DNA from: a virus
Virus genome (UHGV): UHGV-0125438
DNA: 13,447 nt
Reading direction: 5' to 3' (one strand)
In this document: one piece after another, positions 1 through 13,447 of the stretch
Layout of the letters: every line of letters begins with the position of its first letter
How positions within the stretch are numbered: position 1 is the first letter of the stretch
Position numbers and translations under genes: made by a program
Notes under the pieces: generated by a model
The model's database searches: none
What the model saw: only the letters and a program-made list of their open reading frames with translations
Told to the model about the DNA's origin: nothing

Positions 1-51
1 TATGGTGCTCTTGGTCTTAATTTCCACAGATTTCACATGGAGAGAAAATAA
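1..51 (+). CDS. 3' end of an upstream gene (partial, last 16 codons), product unknown
   Basis: Frame 1 is open from the window edge to a TAA at 49-51 that overlaps the next gene's ATG (TAATG, 49-53), a typical translational-coupling junction in phage late operons. Too short to assign a function. Confidence 0.3.
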   Translation, partial: YGALGLNFHRFHMERK

Positions 52-590
52 TGTGTAACCCAGCCATCGCTTTGGTTGCCGTCACAGTGGCATCCACAGC
101 CGCGTCAATGTACAGCCAGAGCAAGCAGGCAAAATACCAGTCAGCCATAGCTGATCGGAATGCTGAAATTGCTGAAGCTCAGGCACAGGATTCAATCAAT
201 CGTGGGAATATTGAAGCGGATCAGCGTCGTCGTGAAATGCGTCAACGCTCAGGCACTGCGGCGGCCACTATGGGTGCTACCGGTGCGGAATTAAGTAGCG
301 GAACAGCTCTTGACGTTTTTGCGGATAATGCTCAGTTCGGCACTCTTGATGCGTTAACGACAGTGAATAATGCTCAGCGTGAGGCATATGGGTATCAGGT
401 TCAGGGAATGAATGCTCAGGCACAGGGGGCTGCTGCTCAGTCGGCTGCTAAATCATCGATGACCAGCACTTTGTTAACGGCACCACTAAAAGCATACGGT
501 GCATACCAGATGGGCGGCGGAACGTGGAGCCCGTTCTCTCAGAAAGCTGCGCCGATTTCTGCTGCTGTTGGTACTCCAACCGGTCGATAA
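51..590 (+). CDS. small virion-associated protein (179 aa), Ala/Gln-rich with an N-terminal hydrophobic segment; possible internal/ejection-associated protein
   Basis: ATG at 51 preceded by GGAGAG (40-45); uninterrupted 179-codon ORF. It is followed 12 nt later by the first of three large co-oriented genes. N-terminal segment AIALVAVTVASTAASMY is hydrophobic. Function inferred from position only. Confidence 0.7.
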   Translation: MCNPAIALVAVTVASTAASMYSQSKQAKYQSAIADRNAEIAEAQAQDSINRGNIEADQRRREMRQRSGTAAATMGATGAELSSGTALDVFADNAQFGTLDALTTVNNAQREAYGYQVQGMNAQAQGAAAQSAAKSSMTSTLLTAPLKAYGAYQMGGGTWSPFSQKAAPISAAVGTPTGR

Positions 591-602
591 GGGGATAATA
601 AG

Positions 603-3116
603 ATGCCAGTTGTACCAACAACATCGGGCCGTCAGGTTCAAAGCAGAGGGATTTCGACGCAGGGATTCTCATCGTTTCAGACACCAAATGTCGGTGATGT
701 ACTTGGCGATGTTGCAGAGCAATATGCAGGTATTATTGCGCAGGCAAAACAGCGTGCGAATGTTGCTATGGCTCAGGATGCTTCTCTTAGCTTAAGCCAG
801 ATAAGCAGCGATCTGCTGAATAACCCTGAAACAGGTTTGCTTAACCTGAAAGGGAAAAATGCTATTGGAAAAGGTCAGGAGTATACGCAGCAGTTTGATG
901 CCCAGGTCGAGCAACTGGCTATGTCGCTGCCGGATGAACAGGCTCGTAATGCTTTCATGCAGCAGGCACAGCAGCAGCGCATTCAGTTCACTACGCAGGC
1001 CGGGCGGCACGAGATAGGGCAAATTAATGCCTACGAAGAAGGTCAGTTTCAGGCGACGCTGCTGAATAATGGTAAAAATGCCGCAGCATTGTATGGCGAC
1101 AATGCCGCATATGTATTGGCTAATAAGCAAACTTTCCAGCAAATTGAGGATTACGGCATTGCGCATGGCTGGAGCGACGAGCAAATCCAGGCCAAGAAAA
1201 TCGAGTTTAAAGAGAAGGTTGCTGATGCCGCATTGTCCCAGTGGTCGGCAAACAATGCGACCGCATTCATCCAAAGTAATGGCGAGTTAAGTGATACTGC
1301 TGCTGGAGCTCGCCGTGCTGTAGCAGATAGTGACTCTTCCGAGCGTGCCCGTGGCATACGCAACAATAACCCAGGAAATCTCGAATACAGCAAAACTAAT
1401 CCGTGGGTAGGCCAGACCGGTGATGATGGTCGATTTGCTAAATTCGAAACACCTGAACACGGGATTCGTGCATTAGGGCGGAACCTGATGTCGTATCAGC
1501 GGCAGGGTATTGATACAGTCAGCGAGATAATTAATCGCTGGGCACCGCCTACTGATAAAAATGACACTATGTCGTATATCAAAGCAGTGTGCGAACAACT
1601 TGGCGTTTCTGCTGATGAGCCTCTCGATGCATCAAATCCTGATACCCTGAAGGCGCTTTGTGCAGCCATTATCCATCATGAGAACGGTAGCCAGCCATAC
1701 AGTGATCAGCAGTTAACTGCTGGTGTCAGTGCAGCACTTGGTTTATCAACAATTCCAACCAACACCAAACGCTATACCGGTAATGCAGCATTCGATGCGG
1801 CCTCTCCTGAGGCGCAGGCAAGTTTTATGCGACAGGCGGATCAACTGCGTCGGCAGCAGCAGGCTGAATATAAAACGATGATTGACAGCCAGGTTCGCGA
1901 TGCGACGGCTGCGTATATGCGTGGCGTTGAATTTCCTAATCCACCTGGTGAGGCTGATTTTATTGCAGCTTATGGCGTCAGAGAAGGAAACCTGCGATAT
2001 ACCGAGTTCAGAAATACGCAGATCGCCGGACAGTATATAGGCTCTTTCCGCAACATGCCGACAAGCAGCATTACAGCATATGTTGAGCAATTACGCCCGG
2101 ATACTGGTGAGACAGGGGAGGGGTATGCGGCACGCGCAGCTCTTTATGACAACGTTGTTTCGGCTGCAAATCAGGTGATAAAGCAGCGGCAGTCGGATCC
2201 TGTGCAGTTCTCTCTTGCCTCCGGACAGGCAAAGCCTATCGACATGAGCAATAAGGATAACTTTGGACAGAGCGTTGCCTTGCGTGCCGCTCAGGTCAGT
2301 GACCTTGCCAAGTCATATGGCACTCCACTGACGTTCTTTTCCAAAGACGAGGCCAATCAGATCGGTGTTTTCTTTCGTGATGCGCCCGTTTCCCAACAGG
2401 CAGCATATCTCGATACCATCAGGCAAAGCACTGGCGGTGGGCAAGTGTATATGTCAGCACTACAGCAGATCAGTGCCAACGCTCCATCTGCTGCCGTTGC
2501 CGGGATACTGATGGATAAGCCTGGTGGTATTTTGGCAGAAAAAAACTGGTTTAATCCGGATGTTTCCGTGTCTCCTGAAACCGCTGCGCAGACAATTCTT
2601 GCTGGCGCGGCGGCTCGTAAAGGTACTGATGATGCGAAAGGTATTCCGATGCCTAAAGATGCTGATCTTCGCCTTGAGTTTTCTGACATGGTGAAGGATG
2701 CATTTGCTGGTGACGCTCAGGGGGCATCAATGGCATACGAGATCGCAAAGGATTATTACGCTGGTGTGATGGCGAAAAAAGGCGTGGTATCAGGCGAAAT
2801 TGACAATGATGTCTGGAAACAGGCTGTTAACGTAGCTACAGGTGGCGTGCATGACTATAACGGAATGGGGAATGTCCTTTTGCCGTGGGGAATGTCTGCA
2901 GAGCAATTCGATAAGCAGGTTAATCAGGCTTGGAATGAACAAGTTGTCGGCTCCGGGATAAAAACACCGCCTGGTCAGTATGGTTTGCAAAGTTACGGCG
3001 ATAGTCAGTACCTGGTGAAACTTGGTACTGGTTATCTGCTGAAAGATGATGGTTCTCCCGTTGTTCTTAATCTGACACAGAAGCGTCAGAGATTCTCCGG
3101 AGATATTCCGCAATGA
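603..3116 (+). CDS. large internal virion / ejection (core) protein, 837 aa
   Basis: 837-codon ORF with ATG at 603 after GGGGATAATAAG; stop overlaps the next start (ATGA at 3113-3116). First of three consecutive 600-840 aa proteins immediately upstream of the tailspike, matching the ejection-protein block of epsilon15-like podophages as I recall it. Contains a motif block (GIRNNNPGNLEY ... HGIRALGRNL ... INRWAPP) that looks like a discrete domain. Confidence 0.8.
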   Translation: MPVVPTTSGRQVQSRGISTQGFSSFQTPNVGDVLGDVAEQYAGIIAQAKQRANVAMAQDASLSLSQISSDLLNNPETGLLNLKGKNAIGKGQEYTQQFDAQVEQLAMSLPDEQARNAFMQQAQQQRIQFTTQAGRHEIGQINAYEEGQFQATLLNNGKNAAALYGDNAAYVLANKQTFQQIEDYGIAHGWSDEQIQAKKIEFKEKVADAALSQWSANNATAFIQSNGELSDTAAGARRAVADSDSSERARGIRNNNPGNLEYSKTNPWVGQTGDDGRFAKFETPEHGIRALGRNLMSYQRQGIDTVSEIINRWAPPTDKNDTMSYIKAVCEQLGVSADEPLDASNPDTLKALCAAIIHHENGSQPYSDQQLTAGVSAALGLSTIPTNTKRYTGNAAFDAASPEAQASFMRQADQLRRQQQAEYKTMIDSQVRDATAAYMRGVEFPNPPGEADFIAAYGVREGNLRYTEFRNTQIAGQYIGSFRNMPTSSITAYVEQLRPDTGETGEGYAARAALYDNVVSAANQVIKQRQSDPVQFSLASGQAKPIDMSNKDNFGQSVALRAAQVSDLAKSYGTPLTFFSKDEANQIGVFFRDAPVSQQAAYLDTIRQSTGGGQVYMSALQQISANAPSAAVAGILMDKPGGILAEKNWFNPDVSVSPETAAQTILAGAAARKGTDDAKGIPMPKDADLRLEFSDMVKDAFAGDAQGASMAYEIAKDYYAGVMAKKGVVSGEIDNDVWKQAVNVATGGVHDYNGMGNVLLPWGMSAEQFDKQVNQAWNEQVVGSGIKTPPGQYGLQSYGDSQYLVKLGTGYLLKDDGSPVVLNLTQKRQRFSGDIPQ

Positions 3117-4915
3117 GTTACTTTGGCCTTAATCCAGTAAACCAGAATCAGCAGCTTGACGAAGCAGCATCAAATCCAGCTGGCTTTAACAGCGATGTTG
3201 GTTTTTTCGACAATGCTGTAGGAGCGGCATTGTCTGGTTTGTACTCCGGGCTGGTGGCAAAGCCAGATCAGTTGCTATGGGCAGGGATGGATAAAATCGT
3301 ATCCCCGATCGCTCAGTTTGTTAACGAAAACACCTCGCTCAATGATACTTCAGTTTCATACATTGCCGAGCAGAGAAAACTAGCAGAGCAGCAGGTTAAG
3401 CGGCTGACGCCTGATGCCGCGACAACCGGAACCGCCGGGCAGGTTCTTTATGGGTTGTTCGATATGGGAGGGCAGGCTGTTGTCGGTACAACGCTCGGTG
3501 GTCCTGTCGGAGGTGCAGCGGCGGTAACTTCGCTACAGGGTTTTTCTGAGTTTGAACGGCTGACAGCACAGGGTGTTGATTTCAGGACGGCGCAGGAAGC
3601 GGGATTAGTGCAGGGCATTACTGCTGGTGCCGGAACACTGATCCCTATGAGCCTCGGGTTACGTGCTGGTGGTGCGCTGGCGGAAGGTGTGGCGGCTCAG
3701 CTTGCGCGGACGGGTGAGAGTTCAGTGCGACGCGCCGCAGCAACAGCAGTACGTGCAATGCCAGATATTGCCTATGCCGCAGGTACAAATATTGCGTTCG
3801 GTATGGCACAGCGTGGGCTTACTGCAAAAACGCTTCGTGATGGTGGCTATAGCGAAATGGCTAACCAGTATGATGTGTTGGATCGACAGGCAATTGCTAT
3901 TGATGCTGTTCTCGGGGTGGCGTTTGGTGGTGTCGGCAGATTTATTAACTCTCGCGGCGAGTCTACAAACGCACCAAATTTTTCACCAGTTGATATCGAT
4001 GCTGCACTGGCTGCGAATGCCGCTCATCATGCTGAAATTGATATTGCGCCCGGCGTGCCGATCAACGTGCTTTCGCGCAATTCTCACATTCAGGCTCTGC
4101 GAAAAGCTATGTCTGATGTTAGCCAGGGGAGACCTGTAGACGTTGCCAGCATTGTTGAGTCTGCATCTTTCAGTGAAATTCCTGGGCGCAAGAGTCTGCT
4201 GTCTCAGGCAGTTAATGAGGCTCTGTCATCTGTAGATGATGGAGTAACGGCGCGCGCTATAGAAAATCGGTTGCTTGAAGAACAGGCCGCGCAGCTTTTG
4301 CCGCGTGGAGATAGACAGGTTTACCAGTCTGAAATCGCTAATAGCCAACGAATTATCGACAATCTCACTGAACAGCGCGCACAAATTCTTGCAGAAGAGC
4401 CAACTGGTAGCGGTAAAGCTTTGTCTCGTGCTCGATCAGATAAACAGGCAAGAATTCGCGATATTGACCAACGAATCCGGCAGGCACAAGAACGCCTGGA
4501 ATTTTCCCGTAACGCGTTGGCACCGCATGAGCCTGGCGGTCAGTTTTTTGAAGCTCGAGCAGAACTGGCACGGAGACAGCAGGCTGAAAGTGAACTTAAT
4601 GCTCAGGCTGTTTCATTCTATAAAACAGCAGAGGTCAGGACGCCAGACGAAGTAGCTCCTTTTGAGCCCGGTAAGATATTGCAACAGACAGAACAAAAAA
4701 TGATGGCAGATCCGGCAGGGGATATTGATCTGCGTATAGCTGAAGACTCGCTGCTTGAATCTCCGGACATGATAATCACCGTGCTGGATGATGATGGTAA
4801 TCCACAATCGCGCAGTGCGCGTGAAGTACTGGATGAAGTGAACAGGGAAAGTGAGCAGGCAATACAGGATTCCAGCCTGTTTGATGTTGCTGTGGCGTGT
4901 TTCTTGAGAGGTTAA
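3113..4915 (+). CDS. internal virion / ejection protein, 600 aa, with Gly/Ala-rich hydrophobic segments
   Basis: ATGA start/stop overlap with the upstream gene; 600-codon ORF. Residues about 100-290 carry repeated small-residue hydrophobic stretches (LGGPVGGAAAVTSL, GITAGAGTLIPMSLGLRAGGALAEGVAAQLA, AIDAVLGVAFGGVG) followed by a charged, helix-prone C-terminal half. Confidence 0.8.
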   Translation: MSYFGLNPVNQNQQLDEAASNPAGFNSDVGFFDNAVGAALSGLYSGLVAKPDQLLWAGMDKIVSPIAQFVNENTSLNDTSVSYIAEQRKLAEQQVKRLTPDAATTGTAGQVLYGLFDMGGQAVVGTTLGGPVGGAAAVTSLQGFSEFERLTAQGVDFRTAQEAGLVQGITAGAGTLIPMSLGLRAGGALAEGVAAQLARTGESSVRRAAATAVRAMPDIAYAAGTNIAFGMAQRGLTAKTLRDGGYSEMANQYDVLDRQAIAIDAVLGVAFGGVGRFINSRGESTNAPNFSPVDIDAALAANAAHHAEIDIAPGVPINVLSRNSHIQALRKAMSDVSQGRPVDVASIVESASFSEIPGRKSLLSQAVNEALSSVDDGVTARAIENRLLEEQAAQLLPRGDRQVYQSEIANSQRIIDNLTEQRAQILAEEPTGSGKALSRARSDKQARIRDIDQRIRQAQERLEFSRNALAPHEPGGQFFEARAELARRQQAESELNAQAVSFYKTAEVRTPDEVAPFEPGKILQQTEQKMMADPAGDIDLRIAEDSLLESPDMIITVLDDDGNPQSRSAREVLDEVNRESEQAIQDSSLFDVAVACFLRG

Positions 4916-4920
4916 ATTAA

Positions 4921-7395
4921 ATGAGACAGGAATGTATACAAGCGGTCCAGCAGGCGGCGCAGCGCACGTTAACGGCGCGAGAAATACAGAACATTGAAGA
5001 CCGCATTTATCGAAATATGCGCTCCATTGCTCGTGATGATCCGATGTCGTGGCGACAACTTTCCGAATCAGAACGGTTGTATCGTGCAGCACAATTGGCA
5101 TCTGAAGAATTACAGCGAGAAGCGGCATTAAAGAAACGTCGTGTGGCTCTCACTATAGCCGCACGTCAGAGATTGGATAAATTTATCAATAGCTATCAAG
5201 GGGCTGATGGGAAACTTGGCGCTCTTAACCGTACTATTGCTTTTAATGCAGACGGTAAATCGAATTTCCTCTCTGTTGAATCCAGAACAAAAGCCACTCG
5301 TGATTATGCATTGAGTCAATTGCAGGAGGCATTTGAAGCAGTTGATCCTCGCTTTTTTGGCCTGTTTGAAGATGAAGCTGGCGTGCGTGACCTGGTATAT
5401 GAAATGCGAGGGCAAAATACTGGCAATGCTAAAGCAAGAAAAGGTGCTAAGGCGTGGAGAGAAGTGACAGAGCTACTGCGCCGCCGGTTTAATGATGCTG
5501 GTGGGGACATTGGCTATCTCGAAAACTGGGGGATCCCTCAACATCATTCTATGGAAAAGGTTGGGGCGGTATCAAAGGATAAGTGGGTTAGCGATGTTAT
5601 AGGTAAGCTGGATCGCAAATATTATACCCGAGTCGATGGACAACTGATGAACGATGCCGAGTTGTCTGCATTTCTTGGAGAGGCTTATAACACGATCGCT
5701 ACTGGTGGGCTGAATAAGCTTACTGATACCGGAATGCGAATTTCCGGCGCACGTGCTAACCGTGGTAATGCATCACGACAGATACATTTCAAAGATGCAG
5801 ATTCCTATCTGCAATATCAGCAACTTTATGGCGATCGCTCTCTATGGGAAATCATGGTCGGTCACCTGGAAGGTATCAGTAAAGATATTGCACTGGTGGA
5901 AACATATGGCCCAAACCCCGATCATGTTTTCCGCTCTCTTCTTGATCAGGTGAAGGCAGAAACTGCAACAGCTAACCCGAGTAAAATCGGTAAAGTCGAG
6001 CGGCTGGCGAACAACACAGAGAATCTGTACAACTTTATTTCCGGAAAGACACAGCCTGTAGCGAATCCGCACATCGCGCGATGGTCTGACAATATCCGCA
6101 ACTGGCTGGTTGCCAGCAGACTCGGATCCGCGTTGCTGTCATCGTTCTCTGATCTTGGAACCATGTATCTGTCTGCGAAGGTTACCAACCTTCCAATGAA
6201 CCAGTTATTCCGCAACCAGCTTGAAGCTATGGACCCAACGAACCGTACAGAACTTGCGCGGGCGCGCCGCGCTGGTCTGGCGATGGAATCTTTACTTGGC
6301 AGCGTTAACCGCTGGGCGATGGATAATATGGGGCCGTCAGTGTCTCGTTGGGCGGCAACGGCGGTAATGCGTGCCAGTGGGCTTACAGCATGGTCAGATG
6401 CGCACAAGCGCGCCTATGGCGTAACCATGATGGGAAGCCTGGGAGAAGTAGTGTCACGGACAGCAGACCTTCGTAGCCTCGATGACTCTGATTTTCGTAT
6501 CCTGAAAAGCAAAGGGATTACTGACACAGACTGGAGAGTATGGAAGCTGGCGCAACAGGAGGACTGGGGGAACGGTAATAATACGATGCTGACACCGGAA
6601 AGCATTATGCGTATCCCTGATTCAGCAGTTAAACATCTTGGTGATCCTGAACGTGTGAAATTTGAGGCAATGCGTAAACTGCTCGGTGCCGTAACTGAAG
6701 AAGTTGATATGGCTGTTATTACACCGGGAGCACGTGAGCAACTGATAACCGGTTCTGGTATTCAGCGTGGAACATGGAAAGGTGAATTAACGAGAAGTGT
6801 TTTCCTGTTTAAATCGTTCCCTATCTCGGTGGTTATGCGTCACTGGTCACGCGCTATGGGTATGCCGTCTGCTGGTGGGCGTGCGGCATATATTGCGACG
6901 TTTATTGCCAGTACGACCATTCTTGGAGCTTTGTCGCAGCAACTTAACGACCTTGCGTCTGGTCGTAATCCTCGCGAGATGACAGGAGAAGATGCCGCAA
7001 AATTCTGGCTTGGTGCTCTATTGAAAGGTGGTGGTCTTGGCCTTTACGGTGACTTTTTATTGTCAGATCACACTAGGTACGGAAGCGGCGCGCTGGCGTC
7101 GATGCTTGGCCCGGTGGCTGGTCTGGTTGATGACGTAGTGAAGATTGCTCAGGGCATACCGTTAAATGCTGTGGAAGGGAAGAGTGAGCAGACTGGTGGT
7201 GATCTGGTGAAGCTGGGGAAAGGTTTGATGCCAGGTGCGAATCTCTGGTACTTGAAGGCGGCTCTCGATCACATGATCTTTAACCAGATGCAGGAGTATT
7301 TTTCACCAGGCTATTTGCGTAAAATGGAGCAACGTTCGAAGAAAGAGTTTAACCAGACATACTGGTGGCGACCTCAGGATGTCACTCCGCAATAA
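4921..7395 (+). CDS. large internal virion / ejection protein, 824 aa
   Basis: ATG at 4921, 5 nt after the previous stop; 824-codon ORF ending TAA at 7393-7395. Third large protein of the block; the only antisense ORFs across it are low-complexity shadow ORFs. Confidence 0.8.
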   Translation: MRQECIQAVQQAAQRTLTAREIQNIEDRIYRNMRSIARDDPMSWRQLSESERLYRAAQLASEELQREAALKKRRVALTIAARQRLDKFINSYQGADGKLGALNRTIAFNADGKSNFLSVESRTKATRDYALSQLQEAFEAVDPRFFGLFEDEAGVRDLVYEMRGQNTGNAKARKGAKAWREVTELLRRRFNDAGGDIGYLENWGIPQHHSMEKVGAVSKDKWVSDVIGKLDRKYYTRVDGQLMNDAELSAFLGEAYNTIATGGLNKLTDTGMRISGARANRGNASRQIHFKDADSYLQYQQLYGDRSLWEIMVGHLEGISKDIALVETYGPNPDHVFRSLLDQVKAETATANPSKIGKVERLANNTENLYNFISGKTQPVANPHIARWSDNIRNWLVASRLGSALLSSFSDLGTMYLSAKVTNLPMNQLFRNQLEAMDPTNRTELARARRAGLAMESLLGSVNRWAMDNMGPSVSRWAATAVMRASGLTAWSDAHKRAYGVTMMGSLGEVVSRTADLRSLDDSDFRILKSKGITDTDWRVWKLAQQEDWGNGNNTMLTPESIMRIPDSAVKHLGDPERVKFEAMRKLLGAVTEEVDMAVITPGAREQLITGSGIQRGTWKGELTRSVFLFKSFPISVVMRHWSRAMGMPSAGGRAAYIATFIASTTILGALSQQLNDLASGRNPREMTGEDAAKFWLGALLKGGGLGLYGDFLLSDHTRYGSGALASMLGPVAGLVDDVVKIAQGIPLNAVEGKSEQTGGDLVKLGKGLMPGANLWYLKAALDHMIFNQMQEYFSPGYLRKMEQRSKKEFNQTYWWRPQDVTPQ

Positions 7396-7404
7396 GGATG
7401 AGAA

Positions 7405-7545
7405 ATGATTGCTTTTATTCTTGTTGTATTTGTGCTTGTTGCCCTTGGCGTTATGAATCGTAAATGTATCATTGAAGACGGTGAATTTGCTGTAGCAGTT
7501 GTTTTGATATTATCTGGTGTAGCAGGGCACATAGGTTTGTCATAG
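7405..7545 (+). CDS. small hydrophobic protein (46 aa), hypothetical
   Basis: Absent from the supplied ORF track (below its length cutoff). ATG at 7405 lies 7 nt after AAGGA (7393-7397) and 9 nt after the upstream stop. My translation is MIAFILVVFVLVALGVMNRKCIIEDGEFAVAVVLILSGVAGHIGLS, two hydrophobic stretches around a charged loop; stop TAG at 7543-7545. Confidence 0.4.
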   Translation: MIAFILVVFVLVALGVMNRKCIIEDGEFAVAVVLILSGVAGHIGLS

Positions 7546-7565
7546 CTTGAGTGTGACATGTCACA

Positions 7566-7581
7566 GGCCGCTTTCGCGGCC
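7566..7581. terminator. GC-rich hairpin (GGCCGC-TTTC-GCGGCC) between convergent genes; possible bidirectional terminator or RNA-stabilising stem
   Basis: Perfect 6-bp GC stem with a 4-nt loop, sitting between the end of the + strand small ORF (7545) and the stop of the - strand gene (7589-7591). No clean poly-U tract on either strand, so terminator function is uncertain. Confidence 0.3.
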
Positions 7582-7588
7582 CTTAAAT

Positions 7589-7846
7589 TTACCGGATTTG
7601 TTTTCGTAATTGTTCGGCACAATAGTCGAGATGTGTTTGCAGATCCTGCATAGACATCTGTGAGCTGGTGACGTAGTTAATCAGTGCAGTCAGTTCGGCA
7701 AGTGGGCCATCGACATTAAATCCATCCTTATCGAGATCCCGGAGTAATTTCATCAAGTGCGATCCCTCCACCAGTGACCTGACGCCTCCCGGCGTGTGAA
7801 TCCTTTCGGTAAATCCGTCTTCCAGTGGATAGTGATACTGCTGCAT
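7589..7846 (-). CDS. small antisense protein (85 aa), unknown function, apparently LexA/SOS-regulated; candidate antirepressor or SOS-induced moron
   Basis: Only convincing - strand gene in the window. I place the start at the internal ATG (7846-7844) because GGAGAAGATAAG sits just upstream on the - strand; the track's longer 126-aa form would run through the LexA box and an AT-rich low-complexity stretch. Product begins MQQYHYPLEDGFTERIHTPGG. A LexA box lies about 20 bp upstream. Confidence 0.55.
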   Translation of the reverse strand: MQQYHYPLEDGFTERIHTPGGVRSLVEGSHLMKLLRDLDKDGFNVDGPLAELTALINYVTSSQMSMQDLQTHLDYCAEQLRKQIR

Positions 7847-7865
7847 CTTATCTTCTCCATGCAAT

Positions 7866-7885
7866 AACTGTATGTTTATACAGTA
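7866..7885 (-). promoter_or_regulatory. LexA binding site (SOS box): AACTGTATGTTTATACAGTA
   Basis: CTGT-N8-ACAG with flanks matching 17 of 20 positions of the E. coli LexA consensus TACTGTATATATATACAGTA, both CTGT/ACAG half-sites intact. It sits in the AT-rich intergenic region just upstream of the - strand gene starting at 7846. Confidence 0.6.
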
Positions 7886-8041
7886 ACAAATAATTTGTTT
7901 GCTATCCAGCACGTTTTGCAAATTACCCGAAAGGTAATATCTATTGGTATTTATAGTCTTTTTATCCATATATGGTTTTTCAGGTAATAGAATAACCAGA
8001 TATGCGGCGCAACGGGTGCTGCGACTATCTGGAGATTTAAC

Positions 8042-10393
8042 ATGACGGTCTCAACCGAAGTTGACCACAACGAATACACCGGTAACGGCGTTACGACATC
8101 ATTCCCTTATACCTTTAGGGTTTTCAATAAATCTGATCTAGTAGTGCAGGTGATTGACCCTGAAGAGAATATCACTGTGCTGGCTCTTGATACTGATTAC
8201 ACAGTCACTGGTGCGGGAGGGTATAACGGCGGCAATGTAATTCTGTCGAAGGCACTGGCTAATGGTTATCAGATTTCCATATCGCGAGAACTGCCGGTTA
8301 CTCAGGAAACAGATCTTAGAAACCAGGGTAAGTTTTTTGCTGAGGTGCACGAGGATGCGTTTGATAAGCTGACTATGCTCATACAGCAGGTAAGTAGTTT
8401 ATTCGGGCTGGCGCTACGTAAGCCATCGAGTATCGCAAACTGGTATGACGCGCTGAACAACTACATCCGTAATCTGTGCGACCCACGAGACCCACAGGAC
8501 GCGGCTACCAAGAACTATGTCGATACGCTGGCAAGTGGCAACTTGAGCCGTACTCTGCGCGTTCCTGAGCCCATTAATCAGCTACCATCAGCAGTTGACA
8601 GGGCAAACAAAATGCCCGCGTTTGATAGCATGGGTAATGCAATTGTCGTTCTCCCGCCATCAGGTTCCGCATCTGAAGTTCTGATAGAGCTGGCAAAAAG
8701 TGACGGCTTCAAATTGATAGGGCAATTCCCTAACGTCACAGTTCTCCGTGCAACGGAGCCAGCTTCCGATGGTCAGCGGGTGCTCCTGAAAGAATATACC
8801 TCTGGTACAGGTTACGGTGGTGGTCAGCTTCGCGCAGTGCTTGATGGAAGTGCATATACAGACAACGGCGTTACCGTATTCAAGACTCCTGGTGGAGCGG
8901 CATGGATTCGTGTTAATGCTGATATCATTAACCCATTAATGGCTGGCGCAGTGCCTGATGGAGTTACCCCGTGCTCAGCAGCAATTAACGCCATGTTTGC
9001 TGTTGGCAAGAGAATGCAGTTTACAGGTGGTGATTATCTTCTTGATGCCACTATAACATTGCAAGCAGGTAGGTCTGTAGATTTTGGATCATCAAGGTTA
9101 ATCCAGGGTACTTCGCTGGCAAATTATATATTGGCGATAAGGGGGGATAATACACATACCTCAGGTGGTTTTATAGTTGGCACAGGTGTCAGGGCTGGGG
9201 CAAACAGTGTGGTGTCTGCGGTATTAGTTGCTGATACCTCTTATAGTTATGTTAAAGGAATGACAGTAAGAAGGGTCCCTGGCTCTGGTATTCAGATGAT
9301 CAATTGCACACGTTGTAAAATTCAGGATTGCATTTCTGAAAATAACTGGGGTATGGGTATTGAAGACCGTTACGGGACATTCAATGAAATTATCAATTCT
9401 GTCGGTAACTATAATGGTTATCTGAGTGATACAGAAATATCTGATGGCGGCAGAGGATGTATTGTCTGGAAGAGCACTGGTACAACCTTTAAAGGAAATC
9501 AAACATTCGGAAATAGCGAGTACGGCATTCGTGTGTATTCACAATCTGGAGATGATGCCACTACACGTTACATCCACATTTTCGACCATCTGGCTGGCGA
9601 TAACAAAAAAATAGACATCTACATTTACAATGATGCAGGAACACTACTTAACGTTGAGTTGAGTAATTGCCATATCCATAGATGGAGCCAGTCATTTAGC
9701 GGAAGCTATATGATTTCTTTGCAAGGAACTCGCTGCCATTTCAATGGAGGAAGTATAACAAAATATGGTGACATTTACGATTCAACGGCAATCCATTGTA
9801 GCAATGGCGACAATATCACAGTTGAAAACGTCAGCATTTCTAACGTATCTGCTGCTTTCGGTAACACTGCCAATAATACTACCGTAAGAAATTGCTCTGC
9901 TTCTTGTGGCGTTGTTATGACAGGTACAGGTGGAACCACCGGATATCTGACATTTGAAAATTGTAACTTTAGCCACACTGGCGCAGGTACATCTGATATA
10001 GCTTTCACAGTAACCTCTGCTACAAAACTTGAAGGGGTCAGGTTCAACGGATTCTTTAGGAATGTTTCATGGAACAATGAACCTCTAATCCTTATAGATT
10101 GTCACAGCACAAATACAACTGGAGACGCAATCAGAATGTACGGAGATGGTGTTGGAGCGTTCTTCCACTCTGGCTGTCGTTGGGATGTCCCAACAGTTCC
10201 TGCCTGGCTTGGAAGCTTAGTGAAGCAAGGATCATCTCTCCCTGTGCTTTACGATACCGCCGCTCCAACCACTTTGACCTGGCCAAGGGGATCGCGATGC
10301 ATAAATTCCTCTCCTGCTGTCGGGAGCCCTAAGGAGTGGGTATGTGTTACCGCCGGCACTCCTGGCACTTGGCAGTCAACAGGAAATCTCTAA
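8042..10393 (+). CDS. tailspike protein (783 aa): conserved N-terminal particle-binding domain plus beta-helix receptor-binding / polysaccharide depolymerase domain
   Basis: ATG at 8042 after GGAG; 783-codon ORF. The N-terminus MTVSTEVDHNEYTGNGVTTSFPYTF matches, from memory, the conserved tailspike N-terminal module of epsilon15/phiV10-like phages. The C-terminal two-thirds is rich in short Asn/Gly/Ser/Thr-containing repeats (NVSISNVSAAFGNTANNTTVRNCSASCGVV, and similar), typical of right-handed parallel beta-helix depolymerases. Confidence 0.85.
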   Translation: MTVSTEVDHNEYTGNGVTTSFPYTFRVFNKSDLVVQVIDPEENITVLALDTDYTVTGAGGYNGGNVILSKALANGYQISISRELPVTQETDLRNQGKFFAEVHEDAFDKLTMLIQQVSSLFGLALRKPSSIANWYDALNNYIRNLCDPRDPQDAATKNYVDTLASGNLSRTLRVPEPINQLPSAVDRANKMPAFDSMGNAIVVLPPSGSASEVLIELAKSDGFKLIGQFPNVTVLRATEPASDGQRVLLKEYTSGTGYGGGQLRAVLDGSAYTDNGVTVFKTPGGAAWIRVNADIINPLMAGAVPDGVTPCSAAINAMFAVGKRMQFTGGDYLLDATITLQAGRSVDFGSSRLIQGTSLANYILAIRGDNTHTSGGFIVGTGVRAGANSVVSAVLVADTSYSYVKGMTVRRVPGSGIQMINCTRCKIQDCISENNWGMGIEDRYGTFNEIINSVGNYNGYLSDTEISDGGRGCIVWKSTGTTFKGNQTFGNSEYGIRVYSQSGDDATTRYIHIFDHLAGDNKKIDIYIYNDAGTLLNVELSNCHIHRWSQSFSGSYMISLQGTRCHFNGGSITKYGDIYDSTAIHCSNGDNITVENVSISNVSAAFGNTANNTTVRNCSASCGVVMTGTGGTTGYLTFENCNFSHTGAGTSDIAFTVTSATKLEGVRFNGFFRNVSWNNEPLILIDCHSTNTTGDAIRMYGDGVGAFFHSGCRWDVPTVPAWLGSLVKQGSSLPVLYDTAAPTTLTWPRGSRCINSSPAVGSPKEWVCVTAGTPGTWQSTGNL

Positions 10394-10432
10394 TGTGATA
10401 TCCTCATTAACAAGGACGTTTTTGAGGTGTTT

Positions 10433-11809
10433 ATGTCAGTTTCCAGAAGAAATTTTATTAAATTAGCTGCGGCCATCGGCGCGCTGTCAGGATCTGGTCT
10501 TCTTTTTGCAGATTTTGTTGCTGGAAGGAAAAACCGCGTATTCATTATTTACGGACAATCCAACTCAACAGGAGCCGTTGATTATTCACAGACCTGGAGA
10601 ACACCAAGCCCATGGGATTCTTATCTTGAATCATATGAGGGTGAGAGAGACGGTAGTAAATTCATCACAACTGATTTGGCAAGTGCATTTACTTTGTCCT
10701 CAGGCGGCGCAAGCTTAACCAATTTAGACAGAATGGCATTTGGTATTGATGCAGGAGAAGGGCCTGTATACGGAATAATTTCACATATCTCAAAAGCGTT
10801 TCCAAATGACAATCTTATTATCTTCGGGCACGGAAGGGGATCCCAGTATATAGAGCAACTTATTAAGCCTAGCAAAGATTTAATTCTTAATGGTGACAAC
10901 TATAACAAACCTCTAACTAAAGAGTCTTCTGACTACAATGTAGTATCAGGAAATAAATCACTGCTTTATTATCGCGAGCCAAAATTCCGCTACCCTTATC
11001 TGAACGGTATGTGGATGCTCGAAAAAATAAAAGATATTATCAAAAGTGATATTCAAGTTGATGGCATCTTCTGGATTCAGGGGGAAAATGATGCCATCGC
11101 CCCTAAAGGATATTCTGAAAAACTTCTATCATTCAGAAATGATTACGTTAAAGATATTGTAAAAATCACAGGGCAGGGCAAAGAGCCAGAGTTTATTTTT
11201 GAGCAAAGCAATTACTGTTGGCATGGTTTTAAAACCGAAGGTAGAAGGATAAACTCACACTTTGGTCTTAACGTCGAGCAACGCATGGCCCATGATGAAG
11301 CAAAACATTCCGGCATTAAGATGTACATCTCTGGCCCAAGATATCACCTGACGAACGAAATTCATATGTACCCACATGCCCAGCGTGCACATGGCGAAAA
11401 AATGGCACAGGCGTATTTAACTAGTAAGTTGTCAGGTTCATCATGGTCACCTCTATGTTATAAATCACATTCTATCGATGGTAACAGCATTATTATAAAA
11501 TTTAATATTCCTGTGAAGCCATTGCAATTTAGAAAAACCCTCAACGGAATGTATTCATTTATAAAAGATGGTTGTCCTATGGGTTTTCATTTCACAGGAA
11601 AAAAACTATCTGCTAGCGACGTTAAGATCATTTCAGATGATACTGTGAGCATCAATACTTCCGGCCTTAAAGGTACGGTGAGTTATCTTAAAGAGTCACG
11701 GATAGGAGAGCTTTGCGATAGTGATGAATTCCCAAATCATTTTAAAGATCGCTATCATGCAGACAATTGCATGCTGAATTATTGCCTTCCGTTTGAGATA
11801 GAAATTTAG
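10433..11809 (+). CDS. Tat-exported SGNH/SASA-family carbohydrate esterase (sialate O-acetylesterase-like), about 458 aa; candidate O-acetyl esterase acting on surface polysaccharide
   Basis: N-terminus MSVSRRNFIKLAAAIGALSGSGLLFA has a twin-arginine motif (SRRNFIK) followed by a hydrophobic h-region. The mature part begins IIYGQSNSTG (SGNH block I as in the SASA family GQSNMxG) and later has WIQGENDA (block III, GxND). Start chosen at ATG 10433 (GAGG 5 nt upstream) rather than the track's GTG at 10427. The gene is visibly AT-rich and sits 39 bp after the tailspike stop. Confidence 0.75.
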   Translation: MSVSRRNFIKLAAAIGALSGSGLLFADFVAGRKNRVFIIYGQSNSTGAVDYSQTWRTPSPWDSYLESYEGERDGSKFITTDLASAFTLSSGGASLTNLDRMAFGIDAGEGPVYGIISHISKAFPNDNLIIFGHGRGSQYIEQLIKPSKDLILNGDNYNKPLTKESSDYNVVSGNKSLLYYREPKFRYPYLNGMWMLEKIKDIIKSDIQVDGIFWIQGENDAIAPKGYSEKLLSFRNDYVKDIVKITGQGKEPEFIFEQSNYCWHGFKTEGRRINSHFGLNVEQRMAHDEAKHSGIKMYISGPRYHLTNEIHMYPHAQRAHGEKMAQAYLTSKLSGSSWSPLCYKSHSIDGNSIIIKFNIPVKPLQFRKTLNGMYSFIKDGCPMGFHFTGKKLSASDVKIISDDTVSINTSGLKGTVSYLKESRIGELCDSDEFPNHFKDRYHADNCMLNYCLPFEIEI

Positions 11810-11934
11810 GCAAATCACCTCTAGGGTAATTTCGTTAAGAGTTATCCGATCAAATTTAATCCACATATGGTTTATTGTGTATGATGAACTCACCAACTAA
11901 GGGGGTTCTTTATGCACATTAAACGGTGGTCACT

Positions 11935-12339
11935 ATGTCGCACTCGTTAACCACTGAAACGCTGAATCAGGGGCTTAGCCTGAGCGCGCTGATGTCTGTG
12001 GTCGCGGGTGCGCCGCCTGAGGTGGCTTTAGGGGCGCTCGCTGGCGCGGTAATTTTTGTTACCTCGGCGGTGGAGTATCCCATAAAGCGACGGTTACTTC
12101 TGGCGTTCCTCAGCTTCTTCTGCGGCCTTCTCTTCTACAAACCGACAGCAACACTTCTCATCGGCTTCGCATCCGCTTTCCCTGGTATTACCACAGATAT
12201 GTTTGAGAAAGGTGTTGCTTACTCAGCAGGGGCGTTTGTTTCTTCAATCGTTGCTGTTGGTATCGGTACCTGGCTGTATCACCGTTCTGGAAATCCACGC
12301 GACCTGATTCCGGGGAGAAAAGACGATGATCAGTCCTGA
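11935..12339 (+). CDS. multi-pass membrane protein of the lysis cassette (about 134 aa); putative holin or holin-associated protein
   Basis: Three to four hydrophobic helices (LSLSALMSVVAGA, LGALAGAVIFVTSAV, LLLAFLSFFCGLLFY, AGAFVSSIVAVGIGTWLY) and a charged C-terminus (RSGNPRDLIPGRKDDDQS). It directly precedes a second small membrane protein and the endolysin. Start is ambiguous: ATG 11935 with GGTGG upstream, or the track's GTG 11926. Confidence 0.65.
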   Translation: MSHSLTTETLNQGLSLSALMSVVAGAPPEVALGALAGAVIFVTSAVEYPIKRRLLLAFLSFFCGLLFYKPTATLLIGFASAFPGITTDMFEKGVAYSAGAFVSSIVAVGIGTWLYHRSGNPRDLIPGRKDDDQS

Positions 12340-12613
12340 GCTCATCCTGAACGCCGCTATATGTGGCGGCATTGCAATCCGAGTCCTGCTGTTCCGCCGT
12401 GACGGGTCACGCCATCGCTGGTGGGGAGGGTGGCTCGCCTATCTGCTGATCGTCGTTGCTGCCAGCGTACCTATCCGGACGTTCTACGGGTACTACGTCA
12501 GCGCCGACTGGTCAGAAATCATCATCAAAGCCGTGTTCCTGGCTGCGCTGATCAAGACAAAAGGGAACGTGGTACAAATCTTCAAGATAACGAGGTCCCA
12601 GCATGGACATTAA
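12326..12613 (+). CDS. putative holin (95 aa)
   Basis: ATG at 12326 after GGGGAG; overlaps the upstream gene by 14 nt and the endolysin start by 11 nt. Small protein with two to three hydrophobic segments and a basic C-terminal tail (KTKGNVVQIFKITRSQHGH), as expected for a holin. Confidence 0.65.
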   Translation: MISPELILNAAICGGIAIRVLLFRRDGSRHRWWGGWLAYLLIVVAASVPIRTFYGYYVSADWSEIIIKAVFLAALIKTKGNVVQIFKITRSQHGH

Positions 12614-13232
12614 ACAATTCCAGCGTGCAGCTGGTGTCAGTGAGGTACTGGCCACGCGCTGGTTCCCGCATATCACCGCAGCAATGAAAGAGTTTGGCAT
12701 TGAGCATCCGCTGCACCAGGCGATGTTTATCGCGCAGGTGGGGCATGAATCCGGCGGATTTACCCGGCTGCAGGAGAATTTTAACTACAGCGTGACCGGG
12801 CTGGCAGGATTCGTCCGCGCCGGGCGACTCACCCAGGGTCAGGCCAACGCGCTGGGCCGCCGTGCCGGCGAACCATCGTTACCGCTGGAGCGCCAGCGTG
12901 CGATAGCCAACCTGGTGTACAGCAAACGCATGGGGAACAACGGGCCGACAGACGGCTGGTTTTACCGCGGGCGCGGGCTTATCCAGATCACCGGGCTGAA
13001 CAACTATCGCGACTGCGGCAACGGCCTGAAGGTTGATCTGGTGCAGAAGCCAGAGCTGCTGGCACAGGATGAGTATGCAGCCCGCAGCGCGGCGTGGTTC
13101 TTCGCCACCAAAGGCTGCATGAAGTACACAGGCGACCTAGTGCGCGTCACGCAGATCATTAATGGCGGGCAGAACGGTATCGACGACCGGCGTGCGCGGT
13201 ACATCACTGCCAGTAAGGTGCTGGCGGTATGA
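12603..13232 (+). CDS. endolysin, glycoside hydrolase family 19 (chitinase-like lysozyme) type, 209 aa
   Basis: Motifs FIAQVGHESGGF and YRGRGLIQITGLNNY are, from memory, characteristic of GH19-type endolysins of enterobacterial phages. Position between the holin and the spanin fits a lysis cassette. GC-rich relative to neighbouring genes. Confidence 0.8.
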   Translation: MDIKQFQRAAGVSEVLATRWFPHITAAMKEFGIEHPLHQAMFIAQVGHESGGFTRLQENFNYSVTGLAGFVRAGRLTQGQANALGRRAGEPSLPLERQRAIANLVYSKRMGNNGPTDGWFYRGRGLIQITGLNNYRDCGNGLKVDLVQKPELLAQDEYAARSAAWFFATKGCMKYTGDLVRVTQIINGGQNGIDDRRARYITASKVLAV

Positions 13233-13447
13233 TCTCGGCATTCGCAAAAGCATACTGGAAACAGTTGGTTATCCTGGCGATGCTTGCTGTTCTGGTCATA
13301 TCAGGAGTTGTAGCCTGGAATGCACACGGCAGTCGTCAGTACGATGCCGGGTATGCGCAGGCGAAGGAAGACCGCAAAGCTGAAGATGAGATAGTTCGTC
13401 AGCACTACGAACAGGAGAAATCGATCAATGAACGTGAAGCGCAGCAG
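13229..13447 (+). CDS. i-spanin (Rz-like), N-terminal part; runs off the window end
   Basis: ATG at 13229 overlaps the endolysin stop (ATGA). My translation is MISAFAKAYWKQLVILAMLAVLVISGVVAWNAHGSRQYDAGYAQAKEDRKAEDEIVRQHYEQEKSINEREAQQ: an N-terminal transmembrane anchor followed by a charged, helix-prone periplasmic region, directly after the endolysin. Confidence 0.65.
   Translation, partial: MISAFAKAYWKQLVILAMLAVLVISGVVAWNAHGSRQYDAGYAQAKEDRKAEDEIVRQHYEQEKSINEREAQQ

Follow-up and report, generated by a model that had tools for sequence, protein, structure and literature searches.

A predicted Tat-exported esterase gene travels with a tailspike receptor-binding domain and may edit the O-antigen of phage lysogens

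The virus genome UHGV-0125438 was analysed as a stretch of 13,447 nucleotides (nt), referred to here as the window, which represents the late region of a temperate podovirus of the phiV10/epsilon15-like type (Uetakevirus). This work concerns the gene at positions 10433-11809 on the plus strand, an intact open reading frame (ORF) of 458 amino acids (aa) with no internal stop codon, whose product is predicted to consist of an SGNH/SASA catalytic domain and a C-terminal beta-sandwich and is hereafter called the esterase. As described in an earlier note on this DNA, the gene lies directly behind the tailspike gene (8042-10393, plus strand) of an epsilon15-like late region: the two genes share one strand, and a spacer of 39 nt (10394-10432) separates the tailspike stop codon from the esterase ATG. 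The ORF listing opens the esterase frame at a GTG (10427-11809); the start is likely to be the ATG at 10433, ahead of which the spacer holds a Shine-Dalgarno (SD) sequence, GAGGTG (10424-10429). The ratio of non-synonymous to synonymous substitution rates (dN/dS) of the esterase ranged from 0.04 to 0.19, dS being saturated for distant pairs, which indicates strong purifying selection and led us to reject the idea of a pseudogene or decaying gene.

With regard to the type of enzyme, the protein matches the Pfam SASA profile (PF03629) with an E-value of 1.5e-9 and 38.2 bits, compared to a gathering score of 24.8. The match covers only residues 194-329, corresponding to the C-terminal half of the profile (positions 107-225), because an insertion of about 150 residues after block I splits the domain. 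The GQSN and GxND blocks that the earlier note had picked out are both present. Block I (GQSN, 10553-10564; residues 41-44, G41-Q-S43-N44, with Ser43 as the predicted nucleophile) follows directly after the strand 34-41, is near-invariant in an alignment of 14 sequences, and aligns with YGQSLSTG of a secreted relative from Bacteroidota. Block III (GEND, 11081-11092; residues 217-220, G217-E-N-D220) lies within the SASA match, and in the same alignment Q216, G217 and E218 are invariant and N219 is near-invariant. The histidine of block V (N308-E-I-H311, 11354-11365) is likewise invariant, while the acid position of this block is N, S or D among the relatives.

An AlphaFold2 model, whose confidence is dealt with below, was compared with the PDB using Foldseek. 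The best match was the esterase tailspike of cyanopodophage Pan3 (9vyh, E=5e-14, probability 1.00), and the other matches at probability 1.00 comprised the CE20 acetylesterase XAC1771 (7kmm), the mammalian sialate O-acetylesterase (8f9o and others), further CE20 enzymes and a Clostridium acetylxylan esterase, with 9ega and 1zmb among the entries. Normalised to the query, template modelling (TM) scores were 0.49-0.58 for the top full-length matches 9vyh, 7kmm and 8f9o; 9ega and 1zmb, which match partially, scored 0.31-0.36. When predicted viral structures were searched, the fold matched long phage proteins, including a head-binding tailspike of a Klebsiella phage, the adhesin of Salmonella phage ViI and Pectobacterium tailspikes. 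The profile score and the fold matches thus bear out the SGNH/SASA esterase class proposed in the earlier note. As judged by sequence and model, we conclude that the gene product is probably a carbohydrate O-acetylesterase of SGNH/SASA fold, with either a Ser-His dyad or an unconventional triad, since the acid position is occupied by Asn308.

To place the esterase among its relatives, an exhaustive HMMER scan was run on 1.84 billion representative proteins, and it gave 11 matches with E<1e-30. Besides the cluster of proteins with the twin-arginine translocation (Tat) signal described below and one truncated copy, most of these were 650-930 aa long with the esterase at the C-terminus; one 475-aa homologue (P0016) is without the long N-terminal part. 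The esterase is about 40% identical, across its whole mature part, to tail fibres of P2-like and siphovirus prophages. The 250-450 residues preceding the esterase in the 650-930-aa relatives have no counterpart in the window protein, and no N-terminal particle-binding or shaft domain was found in it upon alignment with these relatives. P0005 occupies the gpH tail-fibre position of a P2-like prophage, P0010 is located behind a gpJ-like protein in a siphovirus-type prophage, and residues 188-457 of the esterase are covered by a match to PHROG 4201 ('tail fiber protein', E=6e-30). A scan of GTDB species representatives produced one remote relative only, from Dysgonomonas. This ancestry among C-terminal fibre heads indicates that the window protein is the enzyme head of a tail fibre in which a Tat signal has taken the place of the part for virion attachment.

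The proposal that all long homologues are bona fide tail fibres holds for P0005 and P0010; it fails for P0007, which in a P2-like prophage of Serratia lies between the portal gene and ogr, outside the fibre locus. Behind each of the long homologues (L022 8001-11038 in Serratia fonticola, L026 9001-11940 and L027 9001-12204), P0005 and P0010 included, there is a conserved ORF with a length of about 294 aa, which was called as 260 aa in L022 and as 294 aa in the same region of L023. It gave no Pfam match and may be a fibre chaperone. In the P2-like prophage of Serratia, it is the pair of esterase homologue and this ORF that sits between portal gene and ogr.

The predicted Tat signal peptide corresponds to 10433-10510 on the plus strand (aa 1-26), with probable cleavage between LFA and D, after A26. 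The SRRNFIK motif to which the earlier note had drawn attention is found at residues 4-10 (S4-R-R-N-F-I-K10) and is followed by the hydrophobic stretch LAAAIGALSGSGLLFA, which has a mean Kyte-Doolittle value of 1.8. The NCBIfam profile TIGR01409 (TAT signal) scored 19.4 bits against a cut-off of 16.7, and the Pfam profile TAT_signal 18.1 bits, under its cut-off of 22.7. RefSeq names the 97%-identical gene of Escherichia coli a 'twin-arginine translocation signal domain-containing protein'. Each of the six homologues compared (72-97% nt identity) preserves S-R-R-x-F-[IV]-K. Over codons 1-32, dN was 0.03-0.14 and dS reached up to 1.4, dS exceeding dN in 13 of 15 pairwise comparisons; the two closest pairs (window-L002 and L003-L011), where dS was at or below dN, have too few substitutions to be informative. 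Homology to the longer relatives begins at residue ~33, just ahead of the strand bearing the nucleophile, and residues 1-32 are thus a separate N-terminal add-on. Taken as sequence features, these properties make export of the esterase by the Tat system likely.

The same N-terminus could also be seen as a membrane anchor or docking helix of a protein that is not exported, the esterase then being a second receptor-binding or receptor-modifying virion protein comparable to the esterase tailspikes of G7C or the Vi phages. This would fit with the homology of the whole mature part to virion tail-fibre heads, with the PHROG 4201 match, with the adjoining tailspike gene and with the sub-threshold Pfam TAT_signal score. 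We nevertheless regard it as most unlikely, given that the protein lacks an adaptor or shaft domain and has just 32 residues ahead of the catalytic strand, and that these residues follow the complete Tat consensus (S-R-R-x-F-L-K), include a hydrophobic region and pass the TIGR01409 cut-off.

The tailspike in front of the esterase is composed of two parts of different history. Its N-terminal virion-attachment part (8042-8698, plus strand) is of the phiV10/epsilon15 type, being 88% identical at the nt level to the N-terminus of the phiV10 tail fibre and matching phrog_1640 (tail protein). The remainder (8699-10393, plus strand) is the receptor-binding domain, a right-handed beta-helix (Pfam Beta_helix), which is 77-97% identical (aa) to the C-terminal ~520-570 residues of the tailspikes at the loci L002, L003, L005, L011 and L012, which have different N-termini. 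The receptor-binding domain and the esterase together form a cassette of 3.1 kb (window ~8700-11809) that was found at six or seven loci with common breakpoints, and the segment 8042-8698 lies outside this cassette and has no homology to its other carriers. Four tailspike adaptors carry the cassette: epsilon15-like, P22-like (Head_binding), TSP1/gp66-type (Tail_spike_N) and a myovirus baseplate. Four structurally different tails would each have to offer a docking site if the esterase were bound to the virion, which further argues against a virion protein.

One and the same prophage is present in E. coli PSJ-36 and LR-25. Here a 97%-identical esterase gene follows a P22-like tailspike and is the last phage gene ahead of dacD, which is the gtr position of P22. 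The DNA common to this prophage and the window (8699-11803, 95% identity) runs from about residue 220 of the tailspike to its end, through the spacer and the esterase, and ends at the esterase stop codon. The shared block is 85% identical to the window (nt) in L003, at the end of a prophage beside yedD-amyA-fli; 82% in L011, where the tailspike is of the Tail_spike_N (TSP1/gp66) type and gtrC-gtrB-gtrA follow on the other strand; 74% in L012, with a P22 Head_binding tailspike; and 72% in L005, behind a myovirus baseplate. A viral contig of 39 kb from IMG/VR (L010) is a near-identical relative of the window (98% nt). Homology past the esterase stops abruptly, and a terminator hairpin is then present in L003, L005 and L012. 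Since the same block recurs with the same ends, it is evident that tails of at least four kinds have acquired one unit of receptor-binding domain and esterase. Two metagenome scans yielded no new cassette locus, the second giving only a compost-metagenome contig with the known tail-fibre homologue P0005.

Base composition points to the same unit. The GC content is 39.1% in the esterase, 49.3% in the backbone (1-8698) and 54-61% in the lysis genes; the receptor-binding domain has 44.9%, with 40-43% across 9000-10000. The AT-rich tract thus starts already inside the receptor-binding domain, so that the foreign segment consists of this domain plus the esterase. The earlier note had taken the esterase for an AT-rich, acquired moron; the low GC content and the acquisition stand, while the gene is half of a two-part cassette and not a lone moron.

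The spacer between the two halves is near-invariant, with about 6 of its 39 columns varying in the alignment of six loci; the coding flanks are 72-95% identical, and the coding DNA beside the spacer varies at third codon positions. An SD-sequestering RNA hairpin in the spacer was rejected, as the minimum free energy of -13.8 kcal/mol (z=-1.28) was equalled by 23 of 200 shuffled sequences. Strict co-divergence of the receptor-binding domain and the esterase was also rejected, their pairwise identities being uncorrelated (r=0.30, p=0.28). The two halves, as read from these alignments, have recombined and yet always co-occur; with recombination inside the cassette, linkage is argued from this co-occurrence and not from tree congruence. 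In E. coli GCA_031576115.1 (L024 8001-8897) we noticed a truncated relative of the esterase (P0004, 298 aa, 63% identity). Signal peptide and Ser block are missing from it, and it is located where another prophage, of myovirus type, ends, again beside dacD; it appears to be a degenerate copy of a similar cassette.

The hosts of the cassette give a clue to its receptor. PSJ-36 has an O93 O-antigen cluster in the same gene order as the published one, including the acetyltransferase gene wexC. Among 5426 complete E. coli genomes the O93 wzy gene was present in 10, and the receptor-binding domain had a full-length homologue in five, all of them among these 10. From this distribution we infer that the receptor-binding domain is specific for the O93 O-antigen. 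The O93 repeat unit is ->2)-beta-Man-(1->3)-beta-Man2Ac6Ac-(1->4)-beta-GlcA-(1->3)-alpha-GlcNAc, and about three quarters of the units are O-acetylated, with approximately half di-acetylated, a quarter mono-acetylated and a quarter bare (PMC10191223). The O93 wexC gene encodes an acetyltransferase of cytoplasmic type (PMC10191223), WexC being MAT-like and soluble. The functional link to the tailspike receptor suggested in the earlier note has consequently become much stronger, in that domain and esterase move together between unrelated phages, the domain occurs in O93 hosts only, and the O-antigen polymer of these hosts is heavily O-acetylated.

An 83% clade of the esterase occurs in Enterobacter hormaechei, and in all about 90 contigs of E. 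coli and about 30 of E. hormaechei carry the gene. The lytic Kuttervirus fGh-Ecl02 (L008, ON212266.1, 4696-7692), which is recorded on Enterobacter cloacae, has a receptor-binding domain with 74% aa identity; this O93-type domain is found on one of its four tailspikes, and the phage has no esterase. The fGh-Ecl02 domain and the E. hormaechei clade together suggest that an O93-like O-antigen is common to E. coli and the E. cloacae complex. The O93 genomes YA-1, ij001 and EC_T6, probably one or two independent lineages, harbour a P22-like prophage with a related receptor-binding domain (72% nt). In YA-1 (L021, NZ_CP137162.1, 6641-11462), the only one of the three that was examined, this domain is followed by gtrCBA and no esterase, whereas L011 (5784-12127) contains receptor-binding domain, esterase and gtrCBA, with ORF sizes as in L021 (488, 305 and 120 aa). 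Two different O-antigen modifiers thus appear to serve one family of receptor-binding domains.

The confinement to O93-type hosts also bears on a purely metabolic function. Prophage-encoded NanS-p enzymes are known in enterohaemorrhagic E. coli, and by analogy the esterase might be a host-benefit moron of the NanS/NanS-p kind, de-acetylating scavenged sugars in the periplasm (9-O-acetyl sialic acid or acetylated mannans) for use by the lysogen, with no role towards the phage receptor. The esterase shares the Pfam SASA superfamily with NanS (E. coli YjhS) and NanS-p, some database entries name the gene 'sialate O-acetylesterase', mammalian SIAE is among the fold matches, and NanS-p is likewise carried by prophages. 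A Ser-His dyad has been reported for NanS, which the esterase without its block V acid resembles. In contrast, tblastn (E<=1e-5) against 50,697 phage records returned five hits, solely in tail fibres of Klebsiella and Vibrio phages and none in Stx or NanS-p phages, so that the NanS type named in the earlier note, and equally the NanS-p type, did not hold up. A relationship to NanS was further rejected by a sequence search of the PDB, which gave only the Pan3 tailspike (E=0.0013, a weak match) and no NanS. The nearest relatives are tail-fibre heads, not NanS, and the domain layout and gene neighbourhood differ, there being no link to sialic-acid genes and instead one to a putatively O93-specific tailspike. 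This linkage to one family of receptor-binding domains is invariable across four phage architectures and found in O93-type hosts only; a nutritional gene would not need it, and we consider such a general role highly unlikely. Nor did PADLOC give any match that would assign the esterase gene to a defence system.

The position of the gene points in another direction. In phiV10, the place of the esterase is taken by oac, which 'functions in superinfection immunity', and in the P22-like carriers the esterase is found at the position of gtr (gtrABC). The esterase was seen in temperate contexts only. In phage BTP1, GtrC shields the O-antigen of the lysogen from the prophage's own tailspike and blocks superinfection (PMC4413052). 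The oac/gtr slot, the temperate contexts and the BTP1 precedent together argue for a lysogenic conversion function that is matched to the tailspike. Our preferred reading, held tentatively and on predicted properties, is that the esterase is a periplasmic O93 O-antigen de-O-acetylase used in lysogenic conversion.

According to this proposal, the host Tat system would export the folded esterase to the periplasm. The O93 repeat unit would be built and acetylated in the cytoplasm (by WexC); after flipping, it would be polymerised and ligated on the periplasmic side of the inner membrane, and it is at this stage, before export of the lipopolysaccharide (LPS), that the periplasmic esterase would meet nascent O93 and remove the 2-O- and/or 6-O-acetyl groups of beta-mannose. 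The lysogen would hence display a de-O-acetylated O-antigen, which would serve less well as receptor or substrate for the O93-specific tailspike inherited together with the esterase. Seroconversion would be the outcome, superinfecting phages that share the receptor-binding domain would be excluded, and the lysogen's O-antigen would be protected from its own tailspike. The receptor-binding domain and the esterase would travel as one cassette because the protective enzyme must match the domain. What the analysis shows is the enzyme family and fold, the signal motif, the linkage within the cassette, the confinement to O93 hosts, the occupied conversion slot and the purifying selection; from these we infer that the protein would be exported, what it would act on, in which direction it would change adsorption and that the lysogen would express it.

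Several observations weigh against this interpretation. The first group concerns expression. The known converters oac and gtr lie on the strand opposite to the tailspike, while the esterase is co-oriented with it. With a gap of only 39 nt, and with no predicted terminator in the stretch from the tailspike through the esterase to the holin gene, the esterase must be transcribed late. A stricter consensus scan found no strong sigma-70 promoter upstream of the esterase and did not call the extended -10 element that a relaxed scan detected at the same offset in six of six loci. This candidate (TCAACA, 17 nt, TG-a-TATCCT; 10376-10404, plus strand), which overlaps the tailspike stop codon, is the sole candidate for a promoter of its own and is weak, scoring 8 of 12 matches plus the TG. 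The second group concerns the enzyme: the Asp usual in SGNH block V (DxxH) is Asn308 here, and the AlphaFold2 model (14 sequences) is of moderate confidence, with a mean predicted local distance difference test score (pLDDT) of 68 and a predicted TM score (pTM) of 0.73. The model is poor around Ser43 and His311 (pLDDT <50 at 43-81 and 302-313), and hence with respect to active-site geometry; its confidence stayed moderate because a profile search for a deeper alignment added only three proteins. Finally, the five O93 carrier genomes amount to approximately three independent host lineages, and the sign of the effect could be the reverse, depending on whether the tailspike prefers acetylated or de-acetylated O93.

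The points on expression would be accommodated if the esterase were a helper made only together with the tailspike during lytic growth and acting at or after lysis. It could then destroy receptors by de-acetylating the O-antigen of debris and of cells nearby, which would keep progeny from being trapped, or it could prime them by turning acetylated O93 into a form for the tailspike to bind and cut. Such a late function would be in line with the shared strand, the 39-nt gap, the lack of any predicted terminator and of a strong promoter, the conservation of spacer and SD as though expression were tied to the tailspike, the lysis genes that follow in the same direction of transcription in the window, and the fact that the relatives are virion enzymes working from outside the cell. 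On the other hand, a Tat signal would be pointless for an enzyme freed by lysis, and from the periplasm it could not reach surface LPS. The lytic phage fGh-Ecl02 employs its 74%-identical receptor-binding domain without such an esterase, the gene occupies the conversion slot beside or instead of gtr/oac, and the signal peptide is under purifying selection. A helper of this kind is therefore unlikely in our judgement, though it is the alternative we take most seriously. For the preferred reading as an O93 de-O-acetylase of the lysogen, the Tat signal is a point in favour: a periplasmic enzyme would reach only nascent O-antigen, so that the signal would suit sustained expression and not a few minutes before lysis.

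When compared with known converters, the esterase occupies the same slot as the acetyltransferases phiV10 Oac and BTP1 GtrC and gtrABC of the P22/Sf6 type, between the tailspike and the lysis genes or the phage attachment site. It also has the same predicted purpose, namely alteration of the O-antigen recognised by the phage's own tailspike, leading to superinfection exclusion and self-protection. Oac, GtrC and gtrABC add acetyl or glucose by means of integral-membrane enzymes and are usually divergent from the tailspike. In contrast, the esterase would remove acetyl groups. It is a predicted hydrolase of SGNH/SASA type, soluble and bearing a Tat signal; its gene runs in the direction of the tailspike and is physically joined to the receptor-binding domain in one mobile cassette. 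Epsilon15 belongs to the same phage group and presents the same predicted end result, a de-O-acetylated O-antigen on the lysogen. Its lysogens are reported to lose O-acetylation through shut-off of the host acetyltransferase; epsilon15 would thereby prevent acetylation, whereas the cassette would remove acetyl groups enzymatically after the repeat unit has left the cytoplasm.

The catalytic module itself is homologous to that of virion esterases (G7C gp63.1, Vi-phage spikes, SGNH proteins of Klebsiella prophages and Pan3 9vyh), which include the best fold matches. Surface polysaccharide is de-acetylated by SGNH receptor-binding proteins (PMC13123978). Virion esterases possess an N-terminal attachment or shaft part of 250-450 residues and act on the target cell from outside, while the window esterase has a Tat signal of 26-32 residues in its place and would be addressed to the envelope of the producing cell. 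Ape1, a peptidoglycan O-acetylesterase (PDB 4k3u), also has an SGNH fold and is exported to act on an envelope polysaccharide. It was a weak fold match at rank 38, and it differs in being a chromosomal housekeeping enzyme with another substrate, remote in similarity and not borne by phages.

Virion SGNH esterases, prophage-encoded acetyltransferase and glucosyltransferase converters, and NanS-p are already described. For a Tat-exported prophage O-acetylesterase, no account was found in a full-text literature search, and the literature on prophage O-antigen deacetylases and superinfection contained only virion-borne esterases and additive converters. Public annotations of the esterase gene carry automatic names only. 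The direction of the reaction, the route of export and the architecture of the cassette thus appear to be undescribed. With still more reserve than the proposed role itself, the unit may be pictured as a portable 'key plus lock-changer', in which a fibre esterase readdressed by a Tat signal would erase acetyl groups from nascent O-antigen. Hard-wired to the matching receptor-binding domain, it would fit onto tails of podovirus, P22-like and myovirus type in hosts of E. coli O93 and E. hormaechei, and would represent an undescribed mode of seroconversion.

Known prophage seroconversion proceeds by adding glucose or acetyl, by changing polymer linkages or by repressing host genes. If our reading is true, an enzyme that takes a host modification away in the periplasm would extend this list of modes, and the swap of an N-terminus alone would turn a virion enzyme into an editor of the host surface. 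The cassette is a clean example of a receptor-binding domain and a presumptive immunity function being inherited as a unit across unrelated phage architectures. It could be of use in the sequence-based prediction of host range and superinfection exclusion and in the design of phage-therapy cocktails against O-acetylated serotypes, and with regard to serotyping, O93 lysogens may type or react differently.

The remainder of the window consists of the internal virion protein genes (51-7395), a small minus-strand ORF that is antirepressor-like (7589-7969) and, outside the cassette, the lysis genes on the plus strand (11926-13232; two holins and an endolysin, with Pfam and PHROG matches). The structural genes are 93-94% identical (nt) to those of phiV10 and its relatives. 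The lysis module (window 11810-13447; two holins and a GH19-type endolysin, 54-61% GC) is just 77% identical to phiV10, and the change from 94% in the structural genes to 77% marks a second mosaic joint right after the esterase stop codon. In front of the tailspike, the region 7398-8041, which follows the last gene for an internal virion protein, also departs from phiV10: the alignment jumps from window position 7581 to 7589 and omits about 1 kb of phiV10 (the Bro-N antirepressor region), and what is retained in the window is a minus-strand ORF of 126 aa that matches phrog_450 and the C-terminus of an antirepressor.

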